Below, piece by piece: positions 12,001 through 27,000 of a DNA stretch of 64,000 bases. Position numbers: made by a program. How positions within the stretch are numbered: position 1 is the first letter of the stretch; each line of letters opens with the position of its first letter. The stretch lies in contig JBHIAH010000003.1 of the NCBI GenBank assembly GCA_046758505.1, forward strand, positions 1-64,000, read 5' to 3'. The stretch comes from Candidatus Methylomirabilales bacterium (GTDB taxonomy: Bacteria > Methylomirabilota > Methylomirabilia > Methylomirabilales > CSP1-5).

Positions 12001-15000
12001 CCGATGATACGCTCTGATTCACCCGGTCAAAGACATGCCCCTCGTCGTCAATCGCGAGAAAGCTGCGGCTGCGGCTGTCGACCGTGACGAGGATGAAGTG
12101 TCGCGTGCTGGCCGTCTTGGCCAGGTACCAATTTTTCCGGGGTCGTCTGGGCAGTACCCCCCAGGCCCCGTCGCCGAGGTATAACACCCCTTGCGGATCG
12201 ACCCTGCCCCCCCGAATCGGGTACGTACGCTTGTAGACGTGATCGTGGTGTTCAAAGGCGACGTCGACGCCGAACCGCTCAAAGAGGGGAACCCAGTGCT
12301 GGCGGATCTTCGTGCCGACCGAGTAGGTAAAGGGCCGGTTCGACGGATAGGCCGGCACGTGATAGACCACGAAGAGGTGGGGCACATCCTGTCGCTCGGC
12401 CAGCGTCCGACGCAACCAATCCGTTTGCGCACCGCCGATGGTGTGGGTATGGTCAGAGTCCAGCACAACCACGCTTAGATAGCGGCCAAAATCCAAGACC
12501 CGGTAGCCACGCCGGCCGGGCGTGGCGAACAAGCTGTAGAAAAACGGCGCTTTGTCGGGGACTTGCCCAAACCCCCCCCGGACCTCATGGTTGCCAATCG
12601 CAACCAATACCGGGATCAGCCGTCCGTCGGGCGTGACCATGTGCCTCTTCCAGCCTGCCAGCCAACGAAACCAACGCTTCACCGATCTCGGGTTTCCGTT
12701 GGCGTAGGCGATGTCGCCGCCGATGACCGCGAACATCGGACTCTGCTTGGCCGCCTGGCGGCAGGTTTCCTGAAACCATTCGCCGAGCATGTCGAGCGGC
12801 TCCATCGTATCTCCACCCACGACGAACCGGATCGGGGTGCTGACGTCTCGGGGCATGGTGCGGAAGGTGAACGCGACCGAGTTTTTCCCGAAGCGGAACT
12901 GGTAATCGCTCCCGGGCTCCAGGTTCGTCAGTTCGGCCACGTGCACAACCCGATCGGAATGAGGCAACGCGTGGTGCGACCCAACGGCACTGTGCCATCC
13001 CATTTCGTCGACCCGCCGATACTGCACCGTGTCACCCTTTTCGGCACCGCTATGCCACTGGATCGTCATCGTGGTCGTCGGGTCGTGTTGCCAGGTGAGG
13101 TAGACCGCGGGCGGATCAAAGGACCCCCTGCCGTTGCCAGGGGCCGCCCCGGACACCCCAACCGGCACGCTGGATAGTGTCAGGCATACGATCCCTGCTA
13201 TCCCGATGCGGACTACCCTGGACGCTATCGTCCCCACGCGTGGCATGCGCCCCCTCCGACTCGCGTTCTCCCCTCAGAAAATCCTCACGTGAGCGATGGT
13301 GCGTTCATGCCCCTCTCTTCCACACTCGTTTCATTGCGAGCCCTCCCCGCTTATATTTTAGCATACGTTGCCCCTCCTACCCGAGTGACTATCTGGAAGC
13401 AAGCCATCACTGATCCGTGGCCAAAGGGGAAACGCCCGCCCACAGGCGCGCGTGCTACGCGGGCGGCACTGCATTACATATACGGGATGTGCACCGCTGT
13501 CGGGGGGTTACTGCTTTCTCTCATCTACACGCGAATTGGCGCGGGTCCCTGCATTCTGCCGTTCCGGCATCACCGGTTCAGCTCAATGATGCGGCCAGGC
13601 GTCAGCCGGGCTTCTGCCTCGCCGCGGCAGGAAAACCAGCAGGCTGTGCAGCCGGTGGGTCTGAACGTGTTGGGCGTGTATTCGGTCCGATGTGCTTCGA
13701 CGGGCAATTCGGAGCAGCCCTGCAAGTAGCCCCCGGGGGTGACCTGAAACCATGCGAGCCCGGCCTGGAAGCTGGGGACCGGCTCTTTGAAGTACGCAGG
13801 GATCTTCCGTAAGTAGAAATTGGAATTCCGGATGGTCCGGTGCGTGCGCTTGAAACGCATGAGTTCTTCAACGACGCCCTCGACTCTTTTCAAATCATCC
13901 CCCACGATGGTGTGGGTCGCGTTGTTGGCCTTGCCTTCGAAGTAGCTCGAGTACGAGACGCAGACGCCCAGGCCCTGGCCCAGGCGGGCGATGGGGATAA
14001 TATCATCCAAATTGTTCCTCATCATGAAGGCATTGAAGCTGATGTTGTCAATCCCGCGAGCCTTGAGTTTGCGGATCACGGTCGTGATGTGGTGAAAGAG
14101 GCCACGGATGCCGCGAGAGATATCGTGCCGCTCGCAGGCAAAATCGAGGGAAAAGGTGATCTGGCCAACTCCTGCCTCCCGCAGCTCGACTCCTTTTCCC
14201 TCTGTTATGAGTTGGCCATGCGTGATCACTTGGGTGCAGATAAACGCATATTGTCCTTGATCCGCCTGACAATGGCGGGCAAGTCCTTTCGGAGTAAAGG
14301 CTCGCCGCCTGTGATGTTGATGTACATGGGACCGAATTTCTTGATGATGGGAAGATAGTCTGTGATCCGCGTCTCATCCATTGTTTTCCAGGAGTCGCAG
14401 CAGTCGCAGCGGGCATTGCAGCTCTTGGTGACCTCAAGATTCACGAAGAGTGTGCCGCAGAGACTCTTCTGCTTGAGAAGCTTCACGGCCCCCGCCACGG
14501 CCATGTTCGGCGTAATGTTTTTCGTAATCATGTAATCTCCCTAACGCTGCATACGCAGCACGCGGCTTGAAAAATGGCTTATCCGATTCGTTCAAGAACT
14601 TCCTGATTTCGCATCACTTCTGCCTTGTCCCCAAACGTGGCAAGGCACAGCAGACCAATACCCACCCATACGAGTTCCCTGATCCTCCGGATAAGACCCA
14701 GCGCCAATCCCGCCGCGGGCCCGAGTCCCATGATCTGGAAAATCAAAACCTTGCCAGCCTCCTGCGTACCGGCCTGCCAGGGGACGAAGAATAAGGCCGC
14801 GCTGATAATTAAGGACAGAGATTCGATCACAAAAGCCGTCACCCATGAGGTCGACAGCCCTAAGAAGACGAGGATCAGAAAGATCTCCACGATGCCCTCG
14901 GCCCAGCCCACTAGGTTGAGGACAAGCGATAGCACGAAGTCTCTCCCTTGGTTTTGATACACCGATGCGATGGCCTCGTCCATCCGTTTGATTTTCTCAA

Positions 15001-24000: not shown

Positions 24001-27000
24001 ACAGCCGCGCCGCTCTCACGAACGTCCGGAACCCTTCTTCAGGGCACCAGGCATCCACCGTGGAAATCAGGGCACGACCGGCGCCCAGGCGCCCGGCCAC
24101 TTCCCGAAAGCTCTCCAGCGACGAGTCGGTCGTCTTCACAATGACCTGAAGGTCGAGACGGGGGAAGCGGGCCCGCGCCCAGGTCTCGCACTCGCGTGCC
24201 TGCTCATTGACGATGATCACCAGGGACGAGACACCCGCCCCCAGCAGATTTCGGATGGTGTGCTCGATCAGGGGGATGCCAGCTACAGGAACCAGGGGCT
24301 TCGGCATGGTCCAGCCTGCCTGCCGCAGGCGGGCGCCTGCGCCCGCCGCGATGATCCCCCCGCGCATGATCGCCTCACCGTTCACAACAACAACTCCCGC
24401 AACCCCTCGAGGGTGTGGACCACCGCGTCGCCCGGACAGCACGGCCCTTCCTCGGGAGCCACCTCGGGCGTCAACCAAACGTGAGCCATTCCGACCTCGC
24501 GGGCCCCGGCCATGTCCCGCCGCAACGAATCTCCCACAAAGACCGCCTGTGCCGGCATAGCCTGCAACGCCGTCAATGCCGACCAAAAGATCCGCGGATC
24601 CGGCTTGACGCATCCGACGTTCACCGAGTCGACAACGACCGTCAGGAACGGACTCAGTCCGACCTCGTGGCAGACCGTGGCGAGGTTCCCGTAGAAATTC
24701 GAGACGATCCCGAGCCGATACCGGCGACTCAGGTGATCCAAGAGGGACACGTTGGAGGAGAGGCAGTCCCGGGCCTCATTCAGGAACCGCGTGGCGATCC
24801 GTCCACTTCGCCCGGCATTCCGCACGCCCAGACCGTCGGTCAGCCCCTGTACCAGTCGCCCGACGGTATCCTCAAACGAAAGCGTGGCAGGAATGGCACC
24901 GACCAGCGCATCATCGGCGGCGTAGAACGCCGGGGCAAATTGCTCGGATGAGAGCTCCACGCCTTCATCCCGGTACAAGCGGAAGAAACGCTCCTTCCAG
25001 GCAACGCCATTGGCATCCAAGGTGCCACCAAAATCGAACAGCACAGCGGTCCGCGCAGCGTGATCCAGCTCCGGCTGTGGACGTTGGTGCTGTTGCATTC
25101 CGTTCATGCCAGCGATTTCTTGCTTGGCGAATCTGAGAGGGCCGCCCGAACAAACCGCCCGGCGTGTCTCTTCAACAAGACCACCAACCCCGGGATCACC
25201 CAGACCAGCTCCCGCCCCCGACGCACAATCCCGTAGGCGACCCCCTGTGCGGCCGGAAGGCCCAGCAGGACAAAAACCCCGACCCGCACCCCCTCCGCGC
25301 TGCCCACCCGCCCCGGGACAAAGGTGAGGAGCGAGTTGAGGGTCAACGCGAGCGCCTCGACGGCCACGGCTGTCACCCACCCTTCCGTCGGGGACAGAAG
25401 ACGCAGGACCACGTAGGTTTCCAGGAACCCGCCAGTCCACCCCACGAGGCACCAGCCCATCGCGGCAGCAAACGATCGCCTGTGCGTCCCGTAGAACGTC
25501 TGAATCCTGGTATCGAACTCTTCCGCCAATGGTTGATACGGCTTGAGACGGGACGCCAAGAGCTTCCAGCGGGCCAGCCGATGCAGGACCGGCGCGAAGG
25601 TCCCCTTGCGCAGCGCCCACGTCAAGAGGAGGAGACCCCCTCCCAGGCCAGCAAGGATGGCCGCGGCGGCCAGCTTGACCGGAGCCGAGAGATCAAATTG
25701 GGTCAGGCAGAGGCCCACGCCCCCCACCAGCAACACCCATTGCGCCAAGAGCTCGGCGTGCTTGTGAACCGTGACCGAAGCGACCGCATGCCCAAGTCCC
25801 AGGATCTCTCCCGACAGATGGGCCTTCACCGGTTCTCCCGCAAGATTGCCCGACGGGACGAGGTAGTTGATCGAATCACCAGCGAGGTATACCGCGAACA
25901 GGTTCCGGAAGTGTGAAGACCGCACGGGGGGGTCAATGAGCACCCACCATCCAGTCATGAAGGCAAGTTGCGCAAACAGATAGAGGACCACGAGGCCGAC
26001 AAACCACCCCCCGATCGCCGTCAGGTTCGTCTGAATGGCCGGCCACCCCACCACCCAGAGGATCCAGGCGATCAGGCCAACCCCGGCCACAACCAACCCG
26101 GCACTCCCAAGCTGCTTCAGCATCCGTCGCTCACCCACCTGCCGCGCTCCCGCGCCATCTACCGACGCTGTCGTAACAGAGAAAAACCCCACCGTGTGTC
26201 AGGCGCTCCGCCTCGGAGGCCTGGCCGGCGGCCGGTTTCAGTCTCCAGGCGCGGATGTTCCGGTGGCATACGTGGCCAGGGGCGGTCTCTCCCCTCACCC
26301 GACAACACGCGTGGTCGGCGGGGGGAAAAGACAACCCTCCCACTCCAGGAGCCCGGGGGGGCGCGGCTCGGGGAGAGGGCTCTTGCGCATATCCCTTCTG
26401 CGAGAGGGCCACGGCACCGCTCTCCCAGCTGACAGATCCCACTCGTATCATAAGTTCTTAGTATACATGACCTCGCCGTGGGGAAAAAAGAGAATTAGGC
26501 TGGCCTGGTTGACAGGGCCTCTCGGTAAACGCCGAGGGCCCAAACAGGGAAATAGATCGGGTAAAGGTGATACTTCAGGAAGAAAACGCGGGGAAAGCCG
26601 GTCCCGTTCCAGAAGGCATCGTCCCAGGAGCCGTCCGGTCGCTGGGTTTCGAGCAGGTACCGGATCCCCCGTGCCACGGCCGGGCTCCTCTCCTCCCCTG
26701 CCGCGAGAAGGCCGAGGAGGGCCCAGGCGGTCTGGCTGGGCATACTCTCCCCTTTCCCGGCGAGGGCAGGATCCATATAGCTCAGCAGGGTCTCGCCCCA
26801 GCCGCCGTCCTCATTCTGGCACCCCTCCACCCAGTGAACGGCCCGGCGGACGTACGGGGCGTTCAGATCCTCCCCGATCGCCCCGAGACCGCGGAGGACC
26901 GACCACGTCCCATAAATGTAATTCGCCCCCCATCGACCATACCAGCCGCCGTGCGCGCATTGGGTCTCTTTGATGAAGGCCAGCGCCCTGGCCGCCTGGG

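Follow-up and report, generated by a model that had tools for sequence, protein, structure and literature searches.

An eight-gene operon on the minus strand of a Candidatus Methylomirabilales contig (positions 17780-26123 of the 64,000-nucleotide stretch analyzed, hereafter the window) may encode the synthesis of a membrane-lipid head group in which a cyclitol is joined through a phosphodiester, a reading that we hold, together with the steps proposed below, with moderate confidence. Judged from gene content, the cassette probably starts from a sugar phosphate, makes from it an inositol phosphate that is activated and in many cases aminated, and places this onto a membrane lipid; the head group is best read as an (amino)cyclitol phosphate activated with CDP. 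A cyclitol lipid had been proposed in an earlier note on this DNA; what stands of that proposal is a coherent route from inositol phosphate through a nucleotide-activated form to CDP-alcohol phosphotransfer, with an oxidoreductase/aminotransferase pair. No description of the cassette was found in the literature searched.

Gene content of the operon and of an inserted module

When coordinates were rechecked, all of the block genes named previously were found in place on the minus strand. The conserved unit is not the triad of inositol-phosphate synthase, IPCT/DIPPS-like protein and oxidoreductase first described, however, but an operon of eight genes. It starts 370 nt downstream of the squalene-hopene cyclase gene (shc, 26495-28426, minus strand; TIGR01507, 797.9 bits, cut-off 431), which lies directly upstream of the cassette. 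The first gene, HpnL-like b (25104-26123), encodes a flippase-like LPG_synthase_TM membrane protein (PF03706, E = 4e-30; TIGR03476, 116 bits, under the cut-off), and its orthologue holds the same position in foreign loci. It is followed by genes for a 241-aa HAD-IA phosphatase (24382-25107; PF00702 and PF13419), the stand-alone nucleotidyltransferase g286 (23648-24367; NTP_transf_3, E = 8e-11), the 279-aa ATP-grasp protein g285 of an unnamed family (22812-23651, GTG start), a class-III, GabT-like aminotransferase (21487-22815; PF00202, E = 1e-102) whose best PDB matches are 4-aminobutyrate aminotransferases, a GFO/IDH/MocA oxidoreductase (20403-21494; PF01408 and PF22725) that scores 63.5 bits against the IolG model (cut-off 355), the transferase g282 (19156-20415), and myo-inositol-1-phosphate synthase (MIPS, 17780-19159; PF07994, E = 5e-96; PF01658, E = 5e-31). 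From HpnL-like b through MIPS, genes overlap at start and stop codons (e.g., ATGA for the MIPS start and g282 stop) or are spaced by ≤11 nt, figures that depend on our own choice of start codons.

The block had also been described as enlarged. Extra genes are indeed present, although the enlargement is an insertion in this genome, made up of g279, another HpnL-like gene and a disrupted radical-SAM gene, all on the minus strand. The IPCT/DIPPS-type fusion g279 (15570-17063; NTP_transf_3 and CDP-OH_P_transf) has an orthologue in only 1 of 12 congeners and is accompanied by a flippase-like partner, HpnL-like a (14579-15583; PF03706, E = 4e-30; TIGR03476, 176.9 bits, cut-off 195.65). The radical-SAM gene (13570-14531), which probably arrived together with the module, is split by a frameshift near 14229 into a CxxxCxxC part (14226-14531) and a C-terminal part (13570-14229), and the frameshift region has identical letters in contigs of four runs. 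A C-terminal remnant of a second MIPS gene is also found on this strand (17161-17361; 63% over 38 aa, MIPS residues 370-407, E = 2e-13).

Transferases, the ATP-grasp protein and the predicted route

Both transferases had been read as fusions to nucleotidyltransferase-like domains. Of the two, only g279 has an intact nucleotide-binding loop; the N-terminal domain of g282 keeps the nucleotidyltransferase fold without the GxGxR loop. The closest structures are the Archaeoglobus fulgidus IPCT/DIPPS (4MND) and its paralogue AF2299 (4O6M/4O6N), which share a cytosolic nucleotidyltransferase-fold domain and a six-helix CDP-alcohol phosphotransferase. The match of g279 to 4MND spans both domains (E = 3e-48) and pairs AAGRGGRL with AAGLGTRL; g279 is a canonical fusion of the IPCT/DIPPS type, and its cytidylyltransferase looks active. 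For g282 the nearest relative is AF2299 (Foldseek against 4O6N, E = 2e-14, TMt 0.77; 4MND also matched), and its degenerate N-terminal domain matches RmlA and MurU at approximately 1e-4. Its CDP-alcohol phosphotransferase motif, D268-x2-DG-x2-AR-x8-G-x3-D-x3-D, is invariant in 19/19 sequences. The product of IPCT/DIPPS is a soluble solute. The nucleotide-binding loop is missing from g282, and both g279 and g282 are coupled to flippase-like proteins and score far under the cut-off of the DIPPS equivalog NF041135 (242.7 and 87.2 bits, respectively; cut-off 580). A third IPCT/DIPPS-like gene, g00126 on contig C1, was borne out; a PfkB kinase gene adjoins it. The proposed cytidylyltransferase g286 is a nucleotidyltransferase with an intact AAGAGARL loop that may use CTP or a different NTP.

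The g285 protein returned no Pfam or NCBIfam matches in profile searches, and a fold search with its structure model (pLDDT 87) recovered ArgX (Z 21.4), RimK (Z 21.0) and ITPK1 (Z 18.5), supporting its earlier description as an ATP-grasp-like orphan. The family comprises 521 representative clusters at E ≤ 1e-30. Among 14 long representatives examined, 10 were nucleotidyltransferase-g285 fusions, and HAD-nucleotidyltransferase-g285, g285-HAD and g285-CDP-alcohol transferase fusions occurred once each. g285 is kept without the GFO oxidoreductase and aminotransferase in loci L026, L073 and L082, in whose genomes the best aminotransferase elsewhere is 39-40% identical or none was found, compared with 71-85% identity in full cassettes. 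It is jointly missing with the HAD phosphatase from the Rhodospirillaceae loci L016, L038 and L044. We consider it more likely that g285 works at a step preceding nucleotidyl transfer than that it ligates a group to the amine, although its top fold matches are carboxylate-amine ligases, which counts against our best explanation.

In the route we propose, MIPS, assigned at family level, would form inositol 1-phosphate from glucose 6-phosphate, and the HAD phosphatase would release inositol. The GFO oxidoreductase may then oxidize a ring hydroxyl and the aminotransferase convert the ketone to an amine, giving an inosamine; this step would be optional, since some relatives are without both enzymes. 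The aminotransferase belongs to a GabT-like group that acts mostly on aldehydes, which also counts against this explanation. g285 could re-phosphorylate the cyclitol as an ITPK1-like kinase, a role about as probable as that of a ligase, and g286 would use CTP or a different NTP to activate the resulting cyclitol phosphate. g282, with its catalytic motif intact and its own nucleotidyltransferase-like domain degenerate, is the candidate for phospho-cyclitol transfer to a membrane-lipid hydroxyl, and the HpnL-like protein may carry the product across the inner membrane. The inserted g279 and HpnL-like a would do an equivalent job with plain CDP-inositol.

Distribution and hopanoid neighbors

Loci with g282 were found in Methylomirabilota, Nitrospirota, Acidobacteriota, Alphaproteobacteria and one Chloroflexia genome; the cassette occurs across several phyla, and the idea of inositol-type lipids special to Methylomirabilota is not sustained. 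In the best 80 foreign g282 loci, many of them cut by contig ends, all four core partners occurred together in 48, with individual counts of 62 for the GFO oxidoreductase, 58 for the aminotransferase, 54 for g285, 53 for g286, 50 for HAD and 63 for the HpnL-like protein. MIPS was detected by tblastn in 33, and at least three further foreign loci carry a shorter MIPS type visible by Pfam only. These counts differ from the adjacency reported earlier (GFO in 10 and MIPS in 9 of 11 loci). Similarly, the previous count of g282 homologs in 26/41 Methylomirabilota became 101/200 overall and 56/104 among high-quality genomes, and 5/11 in the source genus (one of the five being a g279-type match); related genomes are not independent samples in any of these counts. 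Amination appears to be an optional two-gene add-on, and the gene pair is absent from three acidobacterial loci.

Hopanoid genes lie near the cassette in this genome: besides shc, the window holds hpnN (29804-32578), hpnH (38081-39103), an hpnG-like gene (39806-40555) and a third HpnL-like gene (40827-41822), and hpnA, a FPP synthase gene, hpnD and ispH also lie within the window. The earlier caveat that this nearness was seen only here can be removed, as such linkage is found again in three or more phyla. In one Hyphomicrobiales locus, for example, the operon is embedded in a full hpn cluster. Locus L034 reads ispH-hpnH-hpnG-mlaC-hpnN-mlaA-hpnL / g282 / GFO...MIPS-shc-hpnE-hpnC/D, and the acidobacterial region reads shc-hpnA-hpnG-hpnC/D...dxs-ispH-cassette. 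In the sampled acidobacterial class, shc occurs in 29/81 genomes and g282 in 10/81, and 10/10 g282 carriers have shc on the same contig, 5-42 kb away (9/9 when G213, flagged as unpublished, is excluded). Cassette neighbors include true HpnN (1233 and 1210 bits; cut-off 1100), MlaA and MlaC. Within Methylomirabilota, co-occurrence is uninformative because shc is near-universal (194/200 genomes), and many Rokubacteria loci (e.g., L042) lie among unrelated genes.

A hopanoid as the lipid acceptor is nonetheless a tentative, rather doubtful assignment, with ceramide and diacylglycerol as other candidates. The Chloroflexia carrier (L066) yielded no shc candidate, nor did an HpnL-like gene turn up less than 10 kb from its cassette, and g282 was absent from 13/14 sampled alphaproteobacterial genomes with canonical HpnL, so that HpnL does not require the cassette pathway. 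The lack of shc in the former and of g282 in the latter count against a hopanoid acceptor.

Alternative products and related systems

The product might instead be a soluble compatible solute, either di-myo-inositol phosphate or a related compound that carries an amine: MIPS would feed a cytidylyltransferase, a DIPPS-type enzyme would couple CDP-inositol with inositol phosphate, and the last phosphate would be taken off by the HAD protein. IPCT/DIPPS relatives of known function make a soluble solute, which counts against our best explanation. Also in favor of a solute are the two-domain match of g279, the matches of g282 to NF041135 and 4MND, the presence of both phosphatase and MIPS, the third IPCT/DIPPS-like gene, and four runs with this DNA that are labeled hydrothermal vent metagenome. 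We nonetheless regard a solute as unlikely: judged by record titles, most carriers are MAGs from soil and groundwater, both transferases fall far short of the equivalog cut-off, and the GFO oxidoreductase, aminotransferase and ATP-grasp protein would be left without a role. The flippase-like gene beside g282 in most of the best 80 loci, and the lipid-transport and hopanoid neighbors, favor a lipid. Transfer of the phospho-cyclitol to another envelope molecule (lipid A, a polyprenol-linked glycan or capsule) would accommodate the PagL-like gene in the window (28466-29152), dxs and ispH beside acidobacterial cassettes, and, in the parts of these sources available, the inositol-containing capsule of Bacteroides thetaiotaomicron (PMC9246714) and the PF03706 proteins (AglD family) that accompany glycan-modifying enzymes (10.1101/2025.07.29.667474). 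Annotated loci hold no recurring glycosyltransferase or polysaccharide genes, however, and hopanoid synthesis and export genes are the recurring neighbors, making this destination quite improbable.

In our view it is very improbable that the aminotransferase corresponds to HpnO, that the block modifies the hopanoid side chain to give aminobacteriohopanetriol, which the ATP-grasp protein would acylate, and that the inositol genes have a separate role. HpnO is a class-III aminotransferase according to the available part of one source (PMC12583986). The enzyme here is likewise class III, GabT- or ornithine-aminotransferase-like, within a hopanoid cluster, and the ATP-grasp fold is nearest amide ligases; yet the aminotransferase shares a single operon with GFO, g285, g286, g282 and MIPS, also where no hopanoid gene lies within 10 kb (e.g., L042 and L066), and g285 is retained where the aminotransferase is missing. 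To our knowledge, HpnO requires no dehydrogenase partner.

In the scyllo-inosamine branch of streptomycin and rhizopine synthesis, inositol phosphate is converted to inositol, oxidized by a GFO/IDH/MocA dehydrogenase to an inosose, aminated to an inosamine and phosphorylated. The operon follows the same logic, although its aminotransferase is class III rather than DegT/StsC type, its kinase candidate is an ATP-grasp protein, and the route would end in CDP-alcohol transfer at the membrane rather than in an antibiotic. The hpnI-hpnK-hpnJ genes with hpnL (BHT glucosamine, cyclitol ether) are likewise a head-group module inside hpn clusters that includes an HpnL-family protein; their chemistry is glycosyl transfer and radical ring contraction rather than CDP-alcohol phosphotransfer, and a profile search of this genome found neither HpnI nor HpnJ above cut-off. 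A putative "alternative" inositol-lipid cluster has been described in Bacteroides (Phocaeicola) vulgatus and Prevotella, species with detected inositol lipids (Heaver et al. 2022, PMC9246714). As far as the available part of that article describes it, the cluster shares a core of MIPS, stand-alone NTP transferase, CDP-alcohol phosphatidyltransferase, HAD hydrolase and a nearby lysyl-PG-synthase-like membrane protein, and a likewise putative route via CDP-inositol. The likeness is one of gene content. The operon here adds GFO, class-III aminotransferase and ATP-grasp genes, and differs in the degenerate nucleotidyltransferase-like domain of its transferase, its hopanoid neighbors and its occurrence in other phyla.

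Because hopanoid clusters contain or adjoin the operon in a number of phyla, its product would be functionally tied to hopanoids, as either a hopanoid head group or a partner lipid. The genes next to the hopanoid cyclase form a tightly packed, widely conserved set and a putative head-group pathway.

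Gene content of the cassette and its surroundings

All genes named in the earlier note were recovered on the minus strand of the window, amid many hopanoid genes. Eight of them are consecutive, running from 26123 down to 17780, with stops and starts that overlap or almost touch (start codons being our choice). Their order is HpnL-like b, HAD phosphatase, g286 (a stand-alone nucleotidyltransferase, 23648-24367), g285 (an ATP-grasp protein, 22812-23651), class-III aminotransferase, GFO/IDH/MocA oxidoreductase (GFO), g282 (a CDP-alcohol phosphotransferase with a degenerate nucleotidyltransferase-like domain, 19156-20415), and myo-inositol-1-phosphate synthase (MIPS, 17780-19159). 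The squalene-hopene cyclase gene (shc, 26495-28426) is on the same strand, its end 370 nt upstream of the cassette, and beyond it lie a PagL-like gene, two HpnM/MlaC genes, hpnN, a TolC-like gene, and mlaDFE. The opposite strand carries hpnH, an hpnG-like gene, a third HpnL-like gene, hpnA, an FPP synthase gene, hpnD, and two Zn-dependent dehydrogenase genes, after which ispH stands on the minus strand. None of the listed data sets holding DNA of the window is an RNA data set that could inform on expression.

The two adjacent Zn-dependent alcohol dehydrogenase genes (44711-46905, plus strand), located between hpnD and ispH, had threonine 3-dehydrogenase and scyllo-inosose 3-dehydrogenase IolM as best models, both under the cut-off, and a similar gene precedes shc in an acidobacterial genome (L086:3-851). 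Also in the window are two long open frames of 336 and 874 amino acids (7511-11013, plus strand) without a Pfam or NCBIfam family, which may be spurious products of GC-rich DNA or unknown genes.

Sequence motifs distinguish the two membrane transferases. The first, g279 (15570-17063), matches PDB 4MND over both domains (E 3e-48); its GxGxR(L) nucleotide loop is intact (AAGRGGRL, aligned with AAGLGTRL of 4MND), and the CDP-alcohol phosphotransferase motif DxxDGxxAR...GxxxDxxxD reads LDGCDGEIARLKFQTSRLGGILDVVGD. In g282, the phosphotransferase motif D268...D293 is invariant, with all residues kept across 19 aligned relatives, whereas variable residues replace the GxGxR loop in all 19. The nucleotidyltransferase fold is nonetheless kept: the g282 model (pLDDT 80) superposes over its whole length on AF2299 and IPCT-DIPPS, and its N-domain alone matches sugar nucleotidyltransferases in a fold search. 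Compared with IPCT/DIPPS (4MND), the phosphotransferase motif is therefore shared by both proteins but the nucleotide loop by g279 only. Neither reached the 580-bit cut-off of the IPCT/DIPPS equivalog NF041135 (g279 242.7 bits, g282 87.2 bits). Nucleotidyltransferase-like domains had been ascribed to both transferases, which holds for g279 but for g282 only at the level of fold. Judged by its sequence, g279 is a full IPCT/DIPPS-type fusion, and we read g282, from alignment and model, as a transferase with a putatively dead nucleotidyltransferase-like domain. The separate nucleotidyltransferase g286 has an intact loop in its own sequence.

The description of g285 as an ATP-grasp-like orphan is borne out by its model (pLDDT 87), a three-domain ATP-grasp fold closest to ArgX (Z 21.4, rmsd 2.7 over 248 residues), RimK (Z 21.0), and ITPK1 (Z 18.5), while no Pfam or NCBIfam family matches. 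Foldseek returned Ddl, RimK, and ArgX at about E 1e-13, and a profile search returned RimK (4e-6) and ITPK1 (1.6e-4), such that ligase and kinase were not separable by fold and PDB profile searches. The family comprises 521 representative clusters at E ≤1e-30. PDB sequence searches with GFO, the aminotransferase, and g286 gave generic relatives only. The oxidoreductase belongs to the GFO/IDH/MocA family as a generic member, and at 63.5 bits did not reach the 355-bit cut-off for inositol 2-dehydrogenase IolG (TIGR04380). The aminotransferase is GabT-like by PDB sequence search. Its class and its placement among hopanoid genes match HpnO, the aminotransferase of aminobacteriohopanetriol synthesis that acts on ribosylhopane, for which no model appeared in the scans; in foreign loci, it is always accompanied by GFO and cyclitol genes.

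All three HpnL-like proteins of the window missed the HpnL cut-off (TIGR03476, 195.65 bits) with 176.9, 116.2, and 186.6 bits; in the alphaproteobacterial loci L055 and L034, the HpnL proteins next to g282 exceeded it (308.8 and 292.7 bits), as the HpnN of both loci exceeded its own curated cut-off. A profile search of the whole genome found neither HpnI nor HpnJ over the cut-off; hence, the known cyclitol-ether route is not what the three HpnL-like genes serve.

A probable second module inserted beside the cassette

The cassette had been described as enlarged in this genome, and we attribute this to a stretch, probably inserted, that carries g279, HpnL-like a (14579-15583), and a radical-SAM gene and has a lower GC content (0.57-0.60 versus 0.62-0.67). 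In the related loci L004 and L005, a purple-acid-phosphatase-like gene directly follows MIPS. Its counterpart in the window, a metallophosphoesterase gene (11909-13246, minus strand; 69-72% identity), is separated from MIPS by a MIPS remnant, g279 with HpnL-like a, and the frameshifted radical-SAM gene, and may be an operon member in this lineage. The remnant (17161-17361, minus strand), between MIPS and g279, corresponds to 38 residues from the C-terminus of another MIPS copy, with 63% identity to MIPS residues 370-407, and resembles a scar left when recombination introduced the g279 module. The radical-SAM gene (13570-14531, minus strand) carries a frameshift near 14229 that breaks it in two. 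Identical letters occur in the per-run contigs of four runs from a single study, possibly the origin of the assembly, and a random assembly error is therefore unlikely. The idea of a radical-SAM accessory common to several loci found no support, as this gene is not significantly similar to the radical-SAM/SPASM genes next to the cassette in loci L009 and L016 (E 0.16 and 0.12).

Only 1 of 12 congeners has a g279 orthologue. In that congener, G023 (C10:18092-23809), the orthologue (72% identity) lies 2.4 kb from shc, and g282 was not found in this 88% complete genome. Two types of head-group module, represented by g279 and g282, seem to replace each other beside shc, and we read g279, HpnL-like a, and the radical-SAM gene as an inserted second head-group module. 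The genome encodes a third IPCT/DIPPS-type fusion (441 aa) elsewhere, away from hopanoid genes and followed by a PfkB-family kinase (G000:C1, about 129750-132400; L084:9249-11910), which may be a true solute-type enzyme or represent a third head-group route.

Conservation, variants, and linkage to hopanoid genes

A pattern scan covering one genome per species yielded more than 539 loci encoding a g282 relative, and the best 80, all from MAG records, were examined with up to 10 kb on each side. Based on tblastn with the window proteins, these 80 loci contain HpnL-like genes (63 loci), GFO (62), the aminotransferase (58), g285 (54), g286 (53), HAD (50), and MIPS (33), and all four core partners occur together in 48. 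These counts are lower bounds because contig ends cut many loci. A shorter MIPS type takes the place of MIPS in three annotated alphaproteobacterial or Chloroflexia loci. Gene order from HpnL through HAD, g286, g285, aminotransferase, GFO, and g282 to MIPS does not differ among loci that carry the label Methylomirabilota or Rokubacteria, Nitrospirota, or Acidobacteriota. The alphaproteobacterial loci and that of one Chloroflexia genome have g282 in the opposite orientation, facing the other cassette genes. No cultured carrier was found: in two protein searches, every named entry within the best 120 is a MAG, and the majority of entries lack an organism name. A one-contig genome from a sister genus (G040) also has g282.

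Variant loci bear on the roles of individual genes. Three acidobacterial loci (L026, L073, and L082) retain HpnL, HAD, g286, g285, g282, and MIPS without GFO and the aminotransferase. In two of these genomes, the best aminotransferase match is only 39-40% identical, compared with 71-78% for cassette orthologues of other Acidobacteriota, and the search gave no match in the third. Amination is therefore an optional add-on to the rest of the cassette. HAD, g285, GFO, and the aminotransferase are missing from three loci of Rhodospirillaceae, where a nucleotidyltransferase, g282, MIPS, an additional small CDP-alcohol transferase, and an HpnL-like gene remain. In one Rhodospirillaceae locus (L016), an OlsB-like GNAT acyltransferase gene (Acetyltransf_5) and a radical-SAM/SPASM gene (4767-5567 and 2624-3556) adjoin HpnN and the reduced g282 module. 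Among 14 long g285 representatives examined for fusions, 10 were nucleotidyltransferase-g285 proteins, and single cases were HAD-nucleotidyltransferase-g285, g285-HAD, g285-CDP-alcohol transferase, and a protein without an added family. Hence, g285 partners HAD and the nucleotidyltransferase rather than the amine genes. The variants and fusions fit a phosphatase and a kinase that together remove and replace the phosphate ahead of activation, with a ligase as the alternative. In the scyllo-inosamine route of streptomycin synthesis, phosphate is likewise removed and later put back. We rate the chance that g285 acts as a kinase as about even, and consider it a similarly balanced question whether the cyclitol is the target of amination.

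The caution that nearness to hopanoid genes might be peculiar to this genome does not hold, since this arrangement recurs in L034, two Rokubacteria loci, and acidobacterial genomes. In L034 (Hyphomicrobiales), the order is ispH, hpnH, hpnG-like, MlaC-like, HpnN, MlaA, HpnL, g282, GFO through MIPS, shc, hpnE-like, and a squalene synthase gene. The two Rokubacteria loci have shc and hpnH within 10 kb of the cassette; in many other Rokubacteria loci, the cassette lies among unrelated genes. Five acidobacterial genomes have shc 5-20 kb from the cassette according to contig number and coordinates, with hpnA-like, hpnG-like, and squalene-synthase genes, dxs, and ispH between the two in Acidobacteriota. 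Even sampling of that acidobacterial class (81 genomes) showed shc in 29 and g282 in 10, and all 10 g282 carriers (two known beforehand; one, G213, flagged unpublished) have shc on the same contig, 5-42 kb away. Under independence, the chance of this is about 1e-5, a figure that overstates the case as relatives are not independent. No shc candidate was found in the genome of the Chloroflexia carrier. Co-occurrence of g282 and shc within Methylomirabilota was discarded as a test of linkage, being empty because shc is present in 194 of 200 genomes. A general pairing of canonical HpnL with g282 was also rejected: among the 14 alphaproteobacterial genomes sampled whose HpnL exceeds the cut-off, g282 occurs in only one, and on a different contig.

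Putative lipid product and its significance

The proposal that the pathway encoded by the cassette equips a membrane lipid with a cyclitol-phosphate head group remains the best reading, and we consider it rather probable. The hopanoid acceptor that was also suggested is only possible: that the acceptor is an extended hopanoid and the products bacteriohopanepolyol phospho-inositol and phospho-inosamine seems to us a tentative idea, more doubtful than the pathway itself. Were it so, an HpnL-family protein would flip the product, and HpnN, MlaC, and MlaA would export it. With bacteriohopanetetrol (BHT, C35H62O4) as the acceptor, the calculated masses are 787.477 for [M-H]- of BHT-phospho-inositol (C41H73O12P) and 788.507 for [M+H]+ of BHT-phospho-inosamine (C41H74NO11P).

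In gene content, the operon resembles a cluster in Bacteroides vulgatus and Prevotella that has been put forward as a putative alternative for inositol-lipid synthesis; the shared core consists of MIPS, NTP transferase, CDP-alcohol transferase, HAD, and a lysyl-PG-synthase-like protein (PMC9246714). The CDP-inositol route proposed there by the authors is a prediction only (PMC9246714), and no Bacteroides name occurs among the best 120 entries of a protein search. A preprint on hopanoid gene neighborhoods lists hpnL, hpnM, hpnS, and hpnT as conserved unknowns in its available text; the words inositol and CDP are absent from its main text, and its Table S3 of conserved shc neighbors may name some of the families (10.1101/2025.07.29.667474). 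Likewise, inositol is unmentioned in the available sections of an alphaproteobacterial hopanoid survey (PMC12583986). Our literature search found no description of the operon and no paper tying cassette genes to hopanoids: bacteriohopanepolyol with inositol gave unrelated papers only, MIPS with shc gene cluster gave none, and Methylomirabilis polar lipids, hpnL, and inosamine with lipid terms gave no such link. As background only, a study of Acidobacteria states that the membrane lipids of this group bear large polar head groups resistant to extraction and that hopanoids were hence analyzed after degradation (PMC5462960).

Although hopanoids rank among the principal membrane lipids of bacteria and are key molecular fossils, knowledge of their polar derivatives and of what hpnL does is still incomplete. 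A conserved route to a phosphate-linked, often aminated cyclitol head group within hopanoid clusters of several phyla would point to an unknown class of hopanoid lipid or to an unknown partner phospholipid of hopanoid-rich outer membranes. If the acceptor is a hopanoid, it would carry the first hopanoid head group of a phospholipid-like, phosphodiester-linked kind, such lipids would have been missed by classical hopanoid analyses, and HpnL-family proteins would gain a testable role. In that case, the lipids would also serve as new biomarkers of Methylomirabilota, Acidobacteriota, Nitrospirota, and soil Alphaproteobacteria. The prediction is open to a direct lipidomics test, with masses that can be computed beforehand, and the pathway would widen bacterial CDP-inositol lipid synthesis, so far a predicted route, from gut Bacteroidetes to abundant soil, groundwater, and methane-oxidizing bacteria.
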